Position numbers and translations under genes: made by a program. DNA of 64,000 nucleotides from Candidatus Campbellbacteria bacterium (lineage in GTDB: Bacteria > Patescibacteriota > Minisyncoccia > Phycocordibacterales > EsbW-18): assembly GCA_016699465.1 (NCBI GenBank), contig CP064977.1, forward strand, positions 74,096 through 138,095. Reading direction: 5' to 3'. The first letter of the stretch is position 1, and every line of letters begins with the position of its first letter. Under the pieces are notes generated by a model. That model ran no database searches, had not been told where the DNA came from, and worked only from the letters and a program-made list of their open reading frames with translations. Positions 2,071-61,330 of this stretch are shown in pieces.

Positions 2071-3129
2071 TTATTTTGCATTTGCTCCTGTGTAGGAGAG
2101 TGTCATACGTTGATCTTTTGGATCAAAAAGATTGATTTTGAACGCGTATGATTTACCAAGCTCTAATGTTTCGCGTAGTTTTTCGATTGATTCAAACTCT
2201 GAAACGTGGACCAAACCAGCAACACCTTCTTCGATAGATGCGAGTGCACCGTGTTTGTTGTACTTAATGATGACAGCTTGAACAATGTCATCTTTTGCAA
2301 ATTTCTTTGCGGCCGCCCCCCACGGATTTTCTTTGAGTGCTTTGACTGAAAGGGAAATTTTTCCATCCTTCACTTCAATAATACGTGCGCGAACTTTTTC
2401 TCCGACAGTAAATATTTTTCGTGGGTTATCAACGAGACCCCAATCGAGTTCAGAAATGTGTGCAAGACCTTCAAGTCCATCTTCAACTTTTATAAAGACT
2501 CCGAAGTCAACAATGCCTGTAATTTCACCTTCAACATCGTCGCCAACGGCATACTTAGAAACAAGTACTTGTTTTTCTTTTTGGTCAGTGCCTTTTTCTG
2601 AGAAGATAAGTTTTCCTTCTTTTGGATCTGCGGTAATAAGTGTTACTTGGAGTGTTTGACCAACAAGTTTTTGCAATTCATCAAAGATGCGGTCCTTATC
2701 GCCACCTTCAACACGAGGGTAGTTGTCTGTTGAGAGTTGTGATGCAGGGAGAAATCCAGCAATTCCTTGCCATTCAAGAATAAGACCACCTTTGTTTGCT
2801 TCCTTAATAGGAAGCACAAATGAAATTTTTTCTCGGACAGCCTTTTCTGCCTCGCTCCAGATGAGTGCTTGACGCGCCTCGCGGAGAGATAATTCAAAAT
2901 ACCCGTCAGCGTTGTTAATATCAACAACGGTTGCGGTTACTTCATTTCCAATTGAAATGTTTTTGATAATGTCTCGTGCGTTATTGAATTCGCGTCCGAA
3001 AATAATTCCAGTACCAAATGGTGCAATATCGACAAAGACAGATGATTTGTGCAATGCGATAACGTGTCCTTCAACAATATCTCCCACGACTGGTGGGTTT
3101 TTTGTCTGAATGAGAAATTCATTCATCAT
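2071..3129 (-). CDS. rpsA: 30S ribosomal protein S1 (four S1 domains)
   Basis: Repeated S1-domain pattern (GxVxGxV...FGAFV...GLLHISE); start placed at MMNEF with AAGAAGG SD 9 nt upstream; ORF-track start 3213 is probably too far upstream. Confidence 0.88.
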   Translation of the reverse strand: MMNEFLIQTKNPPVVGDIVEGHVIALHKSSVFVDIAPFGTGIIFGREFNNARDIIKNISIGNEVTATVVDINNADGYFELSLREARQALIWSEAEKAVREKISFVLPIKEANKGGLILEWQGIAGFLPASQLSTDNYPRVEGGDKDRIFDELQKLVGQTLQVTLITADPKEGKLIFSEKGTDQKEKQVLVSKYAVGDDVEGEITGIVDFGVFIKVEDGLEGLAHISELDWGLVDNPRKIFTVGEKVRARIIEVKDGKISLSVKALKENPWGAAAKKFAKDDIVQAVIIKYNKHGALASIEEGVAGLVHVSEFESIEKLRETLELGKSYAFKINLFDPKDQRMTLSYTGANAK

Positions 3130-7422: not shown

Positions 7423-8439
7423 TTACAAAAGATTTTTGCGATCAAAATGTGAACGCTCGGCTTCTTCAACGACACGCACCATTGTCTGTACAGCTTCAAG
7501 AGGATACTCGCCTGACGCCGTTTCGTCCGAAAGCATAACAGCGTCGGTCCCGTCCCATACTGCTTGGGCAATATCAGATACTTCAGCGCGTGTTGGGTGC
7601 GAATGCGTCACCATCGAGAAAAGCATTTGTGTTGCGGTAATACTTGCTTTGTTGTGCCAGATTGCATGTCGAATAAGATTTTTTTGTACAAAGGGAACTT
7701 GTTCGATAGGCATCTCAATTCCAAGATCTCCGCGCGCAATCATGATTGCATCTGATGCCGAAATAATTGCATCAATGTCTTTGAGTGCGAGGTGCGTTTC
7801 TATTTTTGAAATAATCTTTGCTTGTGTATGTACCACTTCACGGAGCATCTGTACGTCTTTTGCACTCTGCACAAATGAAATAGCGACATACTCAACACCT
7901 TCTTGAAGGGCAAACGCGACATCTTTGTAATCTTTGTCGGTAAGTCCTGACATGGTTAGTTTGGTGTGCGGCACATTGACGCCTTTGCGGGAAAAGAGAA
8001 CTCCTTCTCGAACAACTTCGCAGGTGATTCGTCTTTCATCAATACTTCGTACCACAAGCTCCATTTCTCCGTTGGCGAGCAATATGGGATCACCAACACT
8101 AATGTCTGCGTGAAGGTAGGGTTCATCAATATGAATAATGCACTCGTCTGTTTCTTCTGCGGTTGAAAACGTGACCATTTCACCCGTGCGGAGCATACGT
8201 CCTTCTTTTGGAAGAGTTCCGACGCGTATACGAGGACCTTGAAGGTCTTGCATGACCGCTAGAGGTATGCCAAGTTCTTTACTTGCACGTTGAATGTTTC
8301 TTCGACGTTCACGATATTCGTCATACGTACAATGAGAAAAGTTCATACGGAAAATAGAAACACCTGCTTCTGCAAATGCTTTAATCATTTCAAAACTTTC
8401 TGATTTTGGACCGATGGTTGCAATTATTTTTGTACGCAT
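7423..8439 (-). CDS. pyk: pyruvate kinase, short form lacking the C-terminal regulatory domain
   Basis: MRTKIIATIGP N-terminus, MIARGDLGIE active-site region, about 339 aa. Confidence 0.9.
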   Translation of the reverse strand: MRTKIIATIGPKSESFEMIKAFAEAGVSIFRMNFSHCTYDEYRERRRNIQRASKELGIPLAVMQDLQGPRIRVGTLPKEGRMLRTGEMVTFSTAEETDECIIHIDEPYLHADISVGDPILLANGEMELVVRSIDERRITCEVVREGVLFSRKGVNVPHTKLTMSGLTDKDYKDVAFALQEGVEYVAISFVQSAKDVQMLREVVHTQAKIISKIETHLALKDIDAIISASDAIMIARGDLGIEMPIEQVPFVQKNLIRHAIWHNKASITATQMLFSMVTHSHPTRAEVSDIAQAVWDGTDAVMLSDETASGEYPLEAVQTMVRVVEEAERSHFDRKNLL

Positions 8440-52348: not shown

Positions 52349-52584
52349 AACCACCTACACCTTCCCGGTCTCATCACGAACATCAATAAAAATAAGCTTT
52401 CCATGGTCGCGTCGTACGGAAACCCAACCTGCAATCGTAATACTACTGTCAATATGTTTTTCGAGGTCTTGTATGTAAATACGGTTTTTCATATGTGTTC
52501 AAGTATATAGGTTTTGTGCCCATTTCCAAAGAGGATAAAGTAACCTAAAAAATGTAAAACCGCCGGACCTTTCTCAAGGCCGGC
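52349..52584. repeat. 236-bp direct repeat, copy B
   Basis: See copy A. Confidence 0.9.
52352..52489 (-). pseudogene. aspS 5' fragment (46 codons then stop; duplicated with the repeat)
   Basis: Encodes [45 protein letters not shown] then TAG where real aspS continues. Confidence 0.8.
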
Positions 52585-52662
52585 GGTCGAAACCATAACG
52601 GTTTCGCAGTACTGTGGTTAGCTGTGGCGACTAAAAACTGCAATCTGCAAGTAAACCGAAAT

Positions 52663-56018: not shown

Positions 56019-57299
56019 TTAGCTTATAGAAATGTGAGAAAGTAAGTCACCCGCGGATACGCGCTCTTGTTTCATAGTATCGCGATCACGAATGGTAAGT
56101 GTTCCATCTTCAAGTGTTTGGTGATCAACAGTAACACACACAGGTGTTCCAATCTCATCTTGTCGGCGGTAGCGCTTTCCTATTGAACCGGATTCGTCGT
56201 ACAACACGCGTGCACTCTTGGAGAGTTCTTTGTATATTTCTTGTGCTTTTTCAGACAACCCATCTTTCTTCATTAAAGGCAATACAGCCACTTGGTAGGG
56301 CGCAATTGCTGCTGGTAGACCCAACACCACTCGAACATCATCTTCAACAGGTTCCTCTCGGTATGCATCACACAAGACGGCAAGAACAGTTCTATCAACG
56401 CCAAGAGAAGGTTCAATAACATGTGGAATAAAGCGTTTTTTTGCTTCCTCATCAAAATAACTCAAATCAACACTCGAGTGTTCAGCGTGAGCTCCGAGGT
56501 CGTAGTCGGTGCGGTATGCAAGTCCGTAAAGTTCTTTCTGACCAAATGGATAGTCAAATTCAAAGTCAATGGTGCGTTTTGAATAGAATGCAAGATCTTC
56601 AGGAGCGATTTCGTGTTCGTGGACATGTTCACTTTTGAGTCCGATTTCAGCGGTCCATGCAAGCATCTGCTTTCTCCAATCTTCAAATGCTGCTTCCCAA
56701 TACTCAGGTGCAACAAAGTACTCCACTTCCATTTGCTCAAATTCACGCACACGGAACAAAAAGTCGCGCGGAGCAATTTCATTGCGGAATGCTTTTCCAA
56801 TTTGTCCCAATCCAAACGGCAACTTAGGATGCAGGGAGTCCATCACGTTCTTGAAGTTTACAAACATTCCTCCAGCAGTTTCAGGACGAAGATATACATC
56901 AGATGAAGAGTCGTCATCAGCACCAATGGCTGTCTTAAACATCATGTTAAATTGCTTCACATCACCAAGTGCTCCCCCACAGTCGGGACATTTCTTTGCG
57001 TCATCAAGCTGATCAGCACGAAATCGGTGTTTACACTTTGTACACGCAACGAGTGGGTCTGAAAATCCAGACACGTGTCCAGACGCTACCCACACTTTTG
57101 GATTCATTAAAATAGCAGCATCCACACCGTACATATCATTTCGGTCATGAATAAATCGTTTCCACCAGAGTGCTTTGATGTTGTTTTTGAGCTCTACACC
57201 TAAAGGTCCGTAATCAAATGTTCCTGCAAGACCGCCGTAAATTTCGGAACCTTGGAAGATAAAGCCGCGCCGTTTGCACAGCGATACTATCTTTTCCAT
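56019..57299 (-). CDS. glyQS: glycine--tRNA ligase (alpha2 dimeric type)
   Basis: Class-II GlyRS N-terminus IVSLCKRRGFIFQGSEIYGG; start at MEKIV with GAAGG SD. Confidence 0.9.
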   Translation of the reverse strand: MEKIVSLCKRRGFIFQGSEIYGGLAGTFDYGPLGVELKNNIKALWWKRFIHDRNDMYGVDAAILMNPKVWVASGHVSGFSDPLVACTKCKHRFRADQLDDAKKCPDCGGALGDVKQFNMMFKTAIGADDDSSSDVYLRPETAGGMFVNFKNVMDSLHPKLPFGLGQIGKAFRNEIAPRDFLFRVREFEQMEVEYFVAPEYWEAAFEDWRKQMLAWTAEIGLKSEHVHEHEIAPEDLAFYSKRTIDFEFDYPFGQKELYGLAYRTDYDLGAHAEHSSVDLSYFDEEAKKRFIPHVIEPSLGVDRTVLAVLCDAYREEPVEDDVRVVLGLPAAIAPYQVAVLPLMKKDGLSEKAQEIYKELSKSARVLYDESGSIGKRYRRQDEIGTPVCVTVDHQTLEDGTLTIRDRDTMKQERVSAGDLLSHISIS

Positions 57300-57535
57300 C
57301 ACGTTAGAGCCTTCGTCTTTGGTCATCCCATTAGAGATAGGAAATGGAATACATTTCCGTATCGGTTAGATTTTTAAAACAAAACTAGATATATTCGTTG
57401 CCCTGTTTCCCATTCGAATCCAAAACTGTGGAATCTCTAACGGGACCAGTACAAAAATAATACCATACGGAACGTAAAAAGCCCGCCATGGAAATGGTGG
57501 GCTCGAGTTGCGAAAAGAACATCTGAGAAAGTTGG

Positions 57536-57838
57536 ACGAGACGAGGGCTTGGGGTCGGTACTAAGGACCGTTGGGACACAATCGCGGTGGTGGTGTGCCC
57601 GTAGTTACGGCCGATGCGGTCGATTTATCGAACTATACTTCCCGGTACGACCCCTTGAACCGTGCCAGAGGATTACGTAAGCCACACACAGGCACCTGTA
57701 CCTGCTGTGCTCTTGATCGACGCAATCATGATCTGTCGCTCTCTTATTTTGTCGTGGGAGCTCCCTCCTCACGATATAGCGACCTAGCGCCCTGCGCAGG
57801 GTTTTTCCACCTAATGGACCCCCTTCGCCCTCGTCTCG
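57536..57838. other. 303-bp GC-rich ORF-free element bounded by a perfect 14-bp inverted repeat (gacgagacgagggc / gccctcgtctcgtc); structured ncRNA or MITE-like remnant
   Basis: Long-range complementary ends; second nested helix ggggtcggtac/gtac-gacccc; many internal palindromes; terminator-like ccctgcgcaggg+TTTTT at 57795-57811; GC about 58%. Confidence 0.45.
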
Positions 57839-57904
57839 TCCGCATGTACCTTACCAAAACGTACTTTTTTGGTCAATTGACTTTTCTACTATATGTAGCA
57901 TACA

Positions 57905-57957
57905 AAAAGCCCCGCCAACGCACGGTGGTGCGTTAGACGGGGCGAAGGTGGCGTTTT
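57905..57957 (-). terminator. terminator for the 57958 gene
   Basis: Nested palindrome gccccg...aacgcac-ggtg-gtgcgtt...cggggc followed by a T-run on the minus strand. Confidence 0.55.
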
Positions 57958-58242
57958 CTAGGCGGTGTTGATGTCCTGAATGAATTCGCTGAATGTCACC
58001 CATTCTTGAACTGCACATCGGAGCTTTTCACCAGTGAGGCGTACGTCCCCGAGTTCCATGCAGTTTCTCCAAAAACAACAGTGGACGATACTATTTTTGT
58101 CGTCAAAACGAATCCGTAGTGCCCACCACGAACCAAGAGTCATAAGGTTTCCATTACGGAAAATACCAAATTGACGACCTCTCTTGAAATTAAAAAGATG
58201 AATCTCTCGGGCAACGCCAGTGCCATTCGGTTGCTTCTTCAT
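57958..58242 (-). CDS. hypothetical protein
   Basis: 94-aa ORF; no family recognised. Confidence 0.4.
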   Translation of the reverse strand: MKKQPNGTGVAREIHLFNFKRGRQFGIFRNGNLMTLGSWWALRIRFDDKNSIVHCCFWRNCMELGDVRLTGEKLRCAVQEWVTFSEFIQDINTA

Positions 58243-58349
58243 GCATCCCCCCTCTCAAAAAAGAACATTAGGACTCTACGCAAACTATACACTTACTATC
58301 AACATAAATCTATTGAATACGTTGAGTCTAAAAGCCTGGTACGCGTTTA

Positions 58350-58378
58350 TTGACAATGTTTTAAGTAACGGGTAGTAT
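58350..58378 (+). promoter_or_regulatory. sigma70-like promoter TTGACA-17-TAGTAT driving the ncRNA
   Basis: Consensus -35, 17-nt spacer, good -10. Confidence 0.55.
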
Positions 58379-58385
58379 CTTCTCC

Positions 58386-58644
58386 GGTTCAGGCAACGTC
58401 TGGCGAAATCGAGGGTTCGAACCCCTCGGGAGAAACCTCGGAGTGAGTAAATTTGTTTCTCTGGGCGTACTGATAGCTATCCCAAGATGCGTAGAATAGG
58501 TGGGAGACTGCGACATTCGATCTCCGGGTCGAATTGAGTCGATGTGAAATACCACCCAATCTGGGAGACAGAGCGTTCCTCCGAACGCTGCTATCAGTTG
58601 CTTGAACCACTCGGGTCCACGATTACGCATCGCGGACCTTTTTT
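58386..58644 (+). ncRNA. unclassified structured ncRNA of about 260 nt (promoter to intrinsic terminator)
   Basis: No ORF. 12-bp P1 helix pairs the 5' and 3' ends (GGUUCAGGCAAC at 58386 with GUUGCUUGAACC at 58597). Adjacent 8-bp P2 helix (CUGAUAGC with GCUAUCAG). T-loop-like hairpin GAGGGUUCGAACCCCUC. Terminator ggtccacgat-tacgc-atcgcggacc+TTTTTT at 58614-58644. Confidence 0.55.
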
Positions 58645-58984
58645 ATACATGCAACAAACAGTCACATGGTTTTTCTTTGAGAATTATCCTCTGTTCTTTG
58701 ATAGTGTTGATGAACACTTTTTGACTACCAGAACCAGTTGCTAATCGTTTATCAAGTGGTGTGTGGTGTTGGTATCCTCGGCGAGAGAATTCTTTTACCA
58801 ACGCTTCATGGCGTGTGTAGAGCGCCTTTTTCTTTCCTACCCAACGCAGTGTTTCTGGATGATGTGCGTACCCACCCTTCCCTTTGTGTTTTGTGAGAAT
58901 GTTCCATAGACCATGAAGCTCGCGATGTTCGGCGAGCAAATGTTTTCTGCATAAATGTTGTGGATGTATGTCCCAAACGCGCAT
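58643..58984 (-). CDS. pyrimidine-dimer DNA glycosylase (T4 endonuclease V / DenV family)
   Basis: N-terminus MRVWDIHPQHLCRKHLLAEHRELHGLW parallels T4 DenV MTRINLxxxxELxDQHLLAEHRELPRIF. Confidence 0.75.
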   Translation of the reverse strand: MRVWDIHPQHLCRKHLLAEHRELHGLWNILTKHKGKGGYAHHPETLRWVGKKKALYTRHEALVKEFSRRGYQHHTPLDKRLATGSGSQKVFINTIKEQRIILKEKPCDCLLHV

Positions 58985-60393: not shown

Positions 60394-60549
60394 ATGTGAT
60401 TGAGTACAATCATGCCGTGAGGCCGATGTAACAAAATTAGATTATTACGTGACCTCATTCTAGCACTTTTTGTAAGAAAAGTTTTTAATTTCAAAAATGT
60501 AAAGAGCCCCAGCAACTGTGCTGGGACTCGGATGTCCGAATGCGTCGGA
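60394..60549. repeat. 156-bp terminator+promoter+5'UTR module, copy A (upstream of tspO)
   Basis: About 95% identical to 63315-63465; contains hairpin cccagca-actg-tgctggg, extended -10 TGcTAGAAT (minus strand) and GTAACA-N9-TGTTAC palindrome. Confidence 0.85.
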
Positions 60550-60562
60550 CGCGCGTACAGGG

Positions 60563-61330
60563 TTACGGAGTGGTCGCCGGGGGTCGCGCCGTGAGGCGGA
60601 CCTCCAGGGTGGTGGCGCCGTCAGCCCCCACACCGCTCTCGATGGTACTCGCCACGAGGGCAGTGTCCCACTCCACGCTCCCGTTTCGGATGGTCCAGAG
60701 AAACAGCGGGTGCGCGGAGGGTGTCAGAGGTGGGGTGATCGTCGGAGCCGGAGAAACCGTTCCGGGAGCGGGCGACACCAGAGGCGTCACGCGCGGTGCC
60801 GGTGCGGGAGCGGGCGGTGAAGTCCTCCGCCGGCCACCCGAGAGTGCCCCGAGGTAGGTGATTCCAGCGACGAGCGCTGCGGCCAGAAGCAGTAGCAGCA
60901 GGGCGAGGATGATCTTGCCCTTGGTCGTGATGAACGACCAGAGGCTGTCACCGAAGCTTGCTGCCGGAAGCGCCTTTGCGATCGGCGGTGCCGGCTGCGT
61001 CGGAGCGATGACGGTCACCTTGATCGGCAGCGCCTCGATCCGGTTCCCACAACTCGCTTTGTAGCGAGGGGTCCCGTCGCGATCGACGAGGACCACGTCG
61101 CCCGGCTCGAGCCGAGCGAACTTGTAGCTCGACGGGCCGACGCGGTTGAGGACCTCCAAGGGCTCCCTCAGGATCTTGGCGGAGAGGCCCAGGTGGGCCT
61201 GCTCGGCGGCCGTCAATGGGTGGTTGAAGGTCGGGTAGGTGGACTCGTCGATGAACGTGGGCGTGTCCGCCCACGAGGCGCCGACGATGGTCAGCAGACA
61301 GAGGGCGAACAACAACGCGATTCTCTTCAT
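60563..61330 (-). CDS. GC-rich secreted Pro-rich protein with C-terminal TM segment
   Basis: Signal peptide, Pro/Ala/Thr-rich low-complexity tail, GC about 66%. Confidence 0.55.
   Translation of the reverse strand: MKRIALLFALCLLTIVGASWADTPTFIDESTYPTFNHPLTAAEQAHLGLSAKILREPLEVLNRVGPSSYKFARLEPGDVVLVDRDGTPRYKASCGNRIEALPIKVTVIAPTQPAPPIAKALPAASFGDSLWSFITTKGKIILALLLLLLAAALVAGITYLGALSGGRRRTSPPAPAPAPRVTPLVSPAPGTVSPAPTITPPLTPSAHPLFLWTIRNGSVEWDTALVASTIESGVGADGATTLEVRLTARPPATTP

Follow-up and report, generated by a model that had tools for sequence, protein, structure and literature searches.

The window, meaning the whole 64-kb stretch of DNA that was analysed, contains a GC-rich element delimited by an inverted repeat and located immediately upstream of glyS. 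Read along the minus strand, a 94-aa gene without a known family (57958-58242) and its terminator are followed by the element, the class II glycyl-tRNA synthetase gene glyS (56019-57326, minus strand) and trpS. A repeat search placed the arms of a perfect 15-bp inverted repeat at 57534-57548 (GGACGAGACGAGGGC) and 57827-57841 (GCCCTCGTCTCGTCC), 100% complementary and separated by a 278-nt spacer. The earlier note on this DNA had reported a perfect repeat of 14 bp; the perfection holds, but the length is 15 bp and the arm starts it gave (57536 and 57825) are off by 1-2 nt. Its figure of about 58% GC agrees well with the measured 57.1%, against 44.2% for the window. The nested complementary segments that it listed, ggggtcggtac (57551-57561) and gtacgacccc (57645-57654), are present but not conserved in relatives. 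Among perfect inverted repeats of at least 14 nt, the element's is the only one in the window with arms more than 50 nt apart, the remaining 18 matches being local hairpins, and block shuffles gave a mean of 0.07 such long-range repeats per window (maximum 2), which together exclude a chance origin.

Orthologous contigs were reached via close GlyRS relatives in a protein collection; the best relatives in the genome collection are Patescibacteria/Parcubacteria. In contigs L161 and L162, GlyRS is 95% identical and the corresponding RNA, of 294 nt, is 80% identical to that of the window. In L163, the values are 93% for GlyRS and 56% for an RNA of 258 nt. Comparison of orthologous loci, which had been recommended earlier, thus found the element in the same place beside glyS in several species. 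The statement that the element contains no ORF is literally incorrect, since a 121-aa ORF with a TTG start (57571-57936, plus strand) overlaps it. Its non-coding character nevertheless stands, because neither the strand nor the frame of the longest stop-free stretch is constant among relatives, and most indels have lengths that are not divisible by three. The relatives, in which the note had envisaged that the element might prove to be coding, have no conserved reading frame.

One of the two readings proposed earlier was a MITE-like or other mobile-element remnant with terminal inverted repeats, and the perfect 15-bp terminal repeats and a GC content unlike that of the surroundings would suit one. 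The element is, however, a single copy: its arm sequence has no other occurrence in the window with up to 3 mismatches allowed, and no further copy was found in related CPR loci (170 loci; about 1.2 Mb) or in viral, phage and plasmid collections, where two motif scans of viral contigs gave chance matches only and BLAST against phages and plasmids gave no match. As stated earlier, no target-site duplication is present, the flanks (aagtt and gcatg) being different. The locus is orthologous across species, and the arms covary through G·U pairs, which are meaningful only in RNA. Given the lack of a conserved ORF, a second copy or a target-site duplication, we regard an origin as a MITE as scarcely credible.

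Signals for transcription of the element were identified on the minus strand, as follows.

57848-57876, minus strand: predicted promoter of the RNA gene, with -35 TTGACC (57876 to 57871), a 17-nt spacer and extended -10 TGgTAAGGT (57856 to 57848)
57505-57533, minus strand: 3' trailer (57533 to 57505) with conserved AGAUGUUCUUUUC, aligned in L161, L162 and L163
57474-57504, minus strand: intrinsic terminator, hairpin 57504 to 57479 and U5 run 57478 to 57474, fold of -15.2 kcal/mol, aligned in L161, L162 and L163
57457-57465, minus strand: glyS promoter, extended -10 TGgTATTAT (57465 to 57457) directly after the terminator, conserved in the window, L161-L164 and L165
57327-57465, minus strand: glyS promoter and structured leader, context outside the RNA

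The G at 57841, the seventh base past the -10, is both the predicted transcription start and the first base of the closing helix, so that a sigma-70-type promoter is predicted to start the RNA at the first base of the 15-bp helix P1. This promoter is absent from the list of a consensus scanner because TAAGGT matches TATAAT at only 3/6 positions. Equivalent promoters, in which 17 nt separate the -35 from the -10 and the predicted start is the base that opens the closing helix, are found in L161/L162, L163, L164, L001, L165 and L297. Trailer and terminator together span 57474-57533 (minus strand), with the terminator about 30 nt beyond the 3' arm. The plus strand had been assumed in the note, but promoter, terminator and G·U pairs place the RNA on the minus strand, which is the strand of glyS, since its G·U pairs would be A·C mismatches on the opposite strand; in silico folding found both strands about equally stable. 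The "hairpin + T5" described earlier is a real hairpin, at about 57790-57806, but not a terminator, as the minus strand reads A5 and then CCC-UGCGCA-GGG. Because glyS has its own conserved extended -10 after the terminator, the element would form a separate transcription unit.

The features of the predicted RNA are listed below.

57534-57841, minus strand: structured RNA, 308 nt long with both strands of the closing helix included
57827-57841, minus strand: 5' strand of P1, GGACGAGACGAGGGC
57534-57548, minus strand: 3' strand of P1, GCCCUCGUCUCGUCC
57790-57806, minus strand: A-rich run and hairpin with a 3-bp stem (CCC/GGG) and palindromic loop UGCGCA, the hallmark of the family
57735-57783, minus strand: P3 (GUCGCU/AGCGAC) around the variable hairpin P3.1; in L163 a G-C pair becomes G·U
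57671-57727, minus strand: P4 (GAUUGCG/CGUAAUC) around hairpin P4.1
57657-57674, minus strand: conserved block AAUCCUCUGGCACGGUUC, in which AUCCUCU and ACGGUUC do not vary between the window, L161 and L163
57565-57613, minus strand: split hairpin resembling 23S helix 69, made up of CGGCCGUAACUA (57613 to 57602), a 29-nt hairpin insert (57601 to 57573) and AACGGUCC (57572 to 57565)

The minimum free energy of the RNA is -129.5 kcal/mol (z = -4.75 against shuffles), and both the minimum free energy and the centroid folds are multi-branched. Covariation was read from only three distinct and close sequences (window, L161/L162 and L163); MAFFT mis-aligns the split and intact helix-69 versions of the RNA. 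In P1, L163 replaces G2-C by A-U and A6-U by G-C, and turns two further pairs into G·U. Comparison of the orthologues revealed a G-C to G·U change in P2 and a C-G to U-A change in P2a. In P4, a G·U pair of the window is A-U in L161 and a U-A pair is C-G in L163, while P4.1 differs between window and L161 by U·G to C-G and G-C to G·U. Each of the three sequences has its own version of the P3.1 stem, paired in every case. The inserted hairpin shows a G·U to A-U change, its stem being GGGCAC/GUGUCC in the window and GGACAC/GUGUCC in L161. The predicted helices P1, P2, P2a, P3, P4 and P4.1 and the inserted hairpin thus keep their pairing through compensatory or wobble changes, on this strand only. 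The alternative reading in the note, a large structured RNA closed by P1, is therefore well supported by the minus-strand promoter and terminator, by the retention of P1 in L161/L162 and L163, and by five other helices with wobble or compensatory changes. The element is very probably an independent structured RNA gene, for which sequence comparison establishes the main helices, the gene structure and the strand.

With nhmmer and blastn, the element had no sequence homologue outside the closest clade among 160 GlyRS loci taken from genome and metagenome scans. RNAs of the same layout were found directly upstream of glyS at loci where GlyRS is 75-87% identical, with the following lengths.

L164: 188 nt
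L001: 211 nt
L165: 201 nt
L297-L299: about 133 nt

These RNAs cannot be aligned to that of the window by sequence. What they share is a -35 and a -10 spaced by 17 nt, a predicted start at the closing helix, and a terminator; the helix spans 8-15 bp, with 8 bp in L297 and 13-15 bp in L161/L162, L163, L001 and L165. The window clade, L001, L165 and L297-L299 also have in common a hairpin preceded by an A-rich run, the loop variant of L164 being uncertain. The hairpin loop, UGCGCR, is invariant in four lineages and retained where GlyRS is only 75-77% identical, whereas the stem covaries (CCC/GGG in the window, L161 and L163; CCU/AGG in L001 and L165; CUC/GAG in L297). The window has every trait by which we propose to recognise the family: a promoter of its own with its start at a long closing helix, an A-rich run leading into the UGCGCR palindromic-loop hairpin, a separate terminator, and glyS as the next gene on the same strand. 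Within this one small clade, RNA length ranges from 133 to 308 nt, and contigs L166-L170 and L300 have no gap at this position.

The gene upstream of the RNA varies by lineage and is the 94-aa gene, a 178-aa gene, dnaJ or another RNA. In L001 (5453-5605) and L297 (1549-1690, plus strand), a further RNA-like gene lies between dnaJ and the glyS-upstream RNA; both genes are closed by helices of 11 bp or more (14 bp in L297), end in their own terminators and fold with z values of -3.5 to -4.4, and neither gave an Rfam or rRNA match. In L162 (1913-1986, plus strand), ARAGORN reports a "tRNA-???" with a 6-nt anticodon loop (CUGCAA), followed by a 3' trailer and terminator (CAACUUCUAGACGUUCUUUCGC ... 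AUGGCGAGUUUUUU) resembling those of the element, as if a trailer-terminator cassette were common to such RNA genes. About 1 kb upstream of the L164 RNA lies a gene for a PemK/MazF-family toxin (2211-2597, minus strand), for which PADLOC gave no match and no link to the RNA was established; some MazF toxins cut 23S rRNA near helix 70. Exact-protein look-up of two neighbouring window proteins found nothing on record, and Pfam, NCBIfam and PADLOC assigned no family to the neighbouring small proteins. Elsewhere in the window, a patch of about 57-62% GC in the 44% GC genome (53390-53740, minus strand) encodes a protein of 115-134 aa (MTKSNAGHKPEV...) without a Pfam family, and was probably acquired horizontally. 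A 68% GC stretch at 60500-61000 is not an RNA: it encodes the low-complexity tail, rich in Pro, Ala and Thr, of a predicted secreted or membrane protein of 255 aa (60563-61330, minus strand).

We next consider known RNA families. Rfam gave nothing for the element, either over the whole window at gathering thresholds or over 57300-58700 at E<=10, and in four relatives it returned only sub-threshold matches of terminator-containing sRNA models to the trailers. Nor did it find an rRNA gene in the window. The cmsearch proposed in the note as a check thus assigned the element to no known family, even at E<=10, here or in the four relatives, and literature searches found no described CPR RNA of this kind. 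Several specific candidates were rejected. For RNase P RNA, manual reading found no P4 strands, CR-I (GGAAAGUCC) or CR-V (ACAGAA..GGCUUA) near the ends, GGCUUA alone occurring in the middle of the molecule, and the covariance models gave a single match in the relatives, of 8.3 bits and on the wrong strand of a different RNA. For 6S RNA there is no Rfam match, and the fold has several branches where a rod with a large central bubble would be expected. SRP RNA and tmRNA were dropped for want of a match at E<=10, as was a group I intron (no Intron_gpI match at E<=10). A retron msr-msd does not fit a downstream gene that encodes GlyRS, and not a reverse transcriptase, in all loci. An IVS reading was also considered and dropped.

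A highly divergent housekeeping RNA missed by Rfam, such as a 6S-like or a reduced RNase P RNA, has some arguments on its side. In E. coli rnpB, transcription begins where the closing helix begins, and the short terminator-bearing 3' trailer is removed; the element has the same stable-RNA architecture, its predicted start being the outermost 5' base of P1 and its terminator following a short trailer. Rapid sequence evolution with retained helices is also seen in 6S RNA, and divergent RNAs are frequent in CPR. Unlike rnpB-type genes, however, the element has neither the RNase P conserved regions (CR-I, CR-V and P4-type long-range pairing) nor a covariance-model match, and models of RNase P, 6S, SRP and tmRNA found nothing at E<=10 in the window or the four relatives. 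Together with the multi-branched fold and the length range of 133 to 308 nt inside one small clade, this makes a housekeeping RNA improbable.

The main rival to a stand-alone gene is a cis-regulatory role, kept alive by the constant position beside glyS. The RNA would then be a leader or attenuator of glyS(-trpS) that senses, for example, tRNA-Gly and controls read-through as in a T-box. In every lineage that has the RNA, it lies directly upstream of glyS on the same strand, despite the varied upstream neighbour, and a terminator separates the two, an arrangement shared with T-box leaders; moreover, helix 69, a copy of which is described below, contacts tRNA in the ribosome. Against this, all relatives keep an extended -10 (TGnTATNAT) just past the terminator, with a distinct and likewise conserved glyS leader downstream of it, so that glyS has a promoter of its own. 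A T-box proper was rejected: no Rfam T-box match was obtained at E<=10, no conserved T-box sequence is present, and the candidate specifier triplet varies among orthologues (GGC in the window, GAC in L161 and AAG in L163). The 15-bp helix that joins the 5' and 3' ends is also unlike T-box architecture. We consider a cis-acting leader unlikely, if somewhat less so than a housekeeping RNA. The glyS leader itself contains a 13-nt helix (57433-57445 with 57326-57338) that pairs the start-codon region with an upstream segment; L161 and L165 retain this helix, and in L164 it covaries (ATCCCGATAGTG/CACTATCGGGAT). The leader, in which no Shine-Dalgarno sequence can be seen, may be a translational control element.

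Part of the RNA resembles helix 69 of 23S rRNA (E. coli 1906-1924), which lies in domain IV. Positions 229-240 of the window RNA are identical to E. coli 23S 1905-1916 (12/12), and both the window and L161 retain CGGCCGUAACUA and AACGGUCC, with a 25-29-nt hairpin in place of U1917. In L163, helix 69 is uninterrupted: the 3' part of the RNA reads CGGCCGUAACUAUAACGGUC, then A, then CCUAAG. Aligned to E. coli rrlH (L171), the L163 RNA is 92.6% identical over 27 nt (23S 1905-1929, E = 1.6e-4) and outscores 40/40 dinucleotide shuffles. The likeness to the ribosomal helix extends to identical stem strands (GGCCGU/ACGGUC) and flanking bases, and the L163 hairpin GGCCGUAACUAUAACGGUC is identical at 19/19 positions and followed by CCUAAG, as in 23S. 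Removal of P1 extends the L163 match to 23S from 27 to 36 nt. By alignment score alone, the window RNA does not match 23S significantly, and a profile of the three RNAs searched against 23S found nothing; the case for helix 69 is made by the L163 match plus the two flanking identical blocks in the window.

The setting of this hairpin differs from that in the ribosome. It lies inside an unrelated RNA of 250-300 nt with its own promoter and closing helix, the loop in the window is split by the 29-nt hairpin, and the rest of domain IV has no significant similarity. A circular permutation of domain IV, in which P1 would sit near 1934, gained no support, as the remainder of the RNA matched 23S 1760-2020 no better than shuffles, and a second helix-69-like match in the window (52581-52602) is an ordinary terminator. 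The 29-nt insert falls at 23S position 1917, which is a recurrent intron insertion site in CPR 23S genes (PMC11270868). The hairpin is absent from L164, L001, L165 and L297, so the rRNA-like part is not a constant of the family. The L164 RNA resembles 23S 2300-2333 instead, with a score reached by 0/40 shuffles. We consider it likely that the helix-69 module was derived from rDNA. No helix-69-binding protein is encoded near the element.

A second RNA gene, mentioned in the earlier note as another ncRNA of the same gene-poor stretch, is located at 58350-58645 (plus strand), with a promoter (TTGACA-17-TAGTAT) at 58350. Its RNA (58385-58612, plus strand) has a 12-bp closing helix (GGUUCAGGCAAC/GUUGCUUGAACC) with one G·U pair, and the terminator is at about 58613-58645. 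Its core (58470-58559) is homologous to the L1 stalk of 23S rRNA (E. coli 2091-2181), with GUAGAAUAGGUGGGAG and GAAAUACCACCC retained and the H78 stem covarying; the RNA has no Rfam match at E<=10. Another CPR contig, L067, encodes a stand-alone RNA (7618-7760, plus strand) in the interval from rpmG to tRNA-Trp that likewise resembles the L1 stalk, is about 110 nt long and has a terminator of its own. Immediately after it the contig has homopolymer runs and a scaffold gap. By binding uL1, this RNA might regulate the operon that follows.

The presence of helix-69 and L1-stalk sequences raises the question of whether the element is a separately encoded piece of a fragmented 23S rRNA, covering the helix-69 region of domain IV, with the closing helix as a processing stem. 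The neighbouring RNA holds a complete L1-stalk homologue, each of the two RNAs has its own promoter, flanking complementary arms and terminator, and some Parcubacteria have reduced ribosomes (PMC9297842). On the other hand, similarity ends at about 27-36 nt in L163 and is not significant by score in the window, the nearly universal H70-H71 sequence is absent, and 29 nt interrupt the helix-69 loop of the window. The RNA is moreover 56% identical where GlyRS is 93% identical, far too variable for core rRNA, and family members at the same locus lack helix 69. A split 23S was rejected on these grounds as very improbable. Nearly as improbable is a decaying, non-functional fragment of duplicated rDNA. 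Short rRNA-like segments and fast evolution would be expected of such a fragment, but a promoter, a terminator and at least 7 helices maintained by compensatory or wobble changes across species would not, nor would an invariant UGCGCR loop common to lineages at 75-77% GlyRS identity.

The best overall explanation, which we favour with somewhat better than even confidence, is a gene for a stable structured ncRNA on the minus strand, directly upstream of glyS, that belongs to an undescribed, fast-evolving family of Campbellbacteria-like Parcubacteria. The absence of a match to any described RNA family, the fast evolution and the helix-69 hairpin copy argue for a new orphan RNA and not a mobile-element scar. 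Like the orphan large structured bacterial ncRNAs OLE, ROOL, GOLLD and the raiA motif, the element is an RNA gene with many helices that stands out by its GC content from an AT-richer genome and is recognised through covariation; it differs from them in matching none of their Rfam models, in being smaller and far less conserved in sequence, and in being confined to one small CPR clade. Homo-oligomers have reportedly been seen for several RNAs of that type in recent cryo-EM work, and the palindromic loop of the element could give the same. Ribosomal-protein leaders and the 23S-methyl motif likewise hold copies of rRNA structure, but are cis-acting mRNA leaders for rRNA-binding proteins, whereas the element is a stand-alone gene beside glyS.

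In analogy to rnpB-type stable RNAs, we propose a model in which P1 protects the ends of a long-lived RNA whose trailer is trimmed. The palindromic UGCGCR loop could mediate kissing-loop homodimers, although we rate dimerisation at somewhat less than an even chance. The helix-69 module, once acquired from rDNA, might let the RNA act in trans by mimicking that part of the 50S subunit and binding the usual partner of helix 69. We infer a stable and trans-acting RNA, and hold its function as an rRNA mimic to be doubtful: the helix-69 loop is interrupted in the window and L161, which speaks against any role requiring it intact, and the absence of helix 69 from distant family members also weakens the idea. 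More speculative still is a broader proposal, that Campbellbacteria-like CPR encode stand-alone RNAs made of ribosomal modules that touch tRNA or the subunit interface, acting in trans as rRNA mimics. Examples would be helix 69 in the element, the L1 stalk at 58385-58612 and the 23S 2300-2333-like part of the orthologous RNA in L164; such RNAs might serve as sensors, as decoys that bind tRNA or factors, or to complement a reduced ribosome.

CPR make up a large and barely studied share of bacterial diversity, with reduced and unusual ribosomes, and to our knowledge almost nothing is known of their non-coding RNAs. The locus described here offers a concrete and testable family of RNA genes, whose ends are defined and whose fold covaries; it includes a loop that may serve dimerisation and, within the RNA, a copy of helix 69. 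If the rRNA-like modules are not functional, the locus is still an example of a fast-evolving RNA gene that has taken up fragments of rDNA and an insertion at a hot spot for rRNA introns. We know of no stand-alone bacterial RNAs that mimic functional parts of the large subunit; if the modules are functional, these would be the first, and RNAs made of ribosomal modules would constitute a previously undescribed class of rRNA-derived regulatory RNA.
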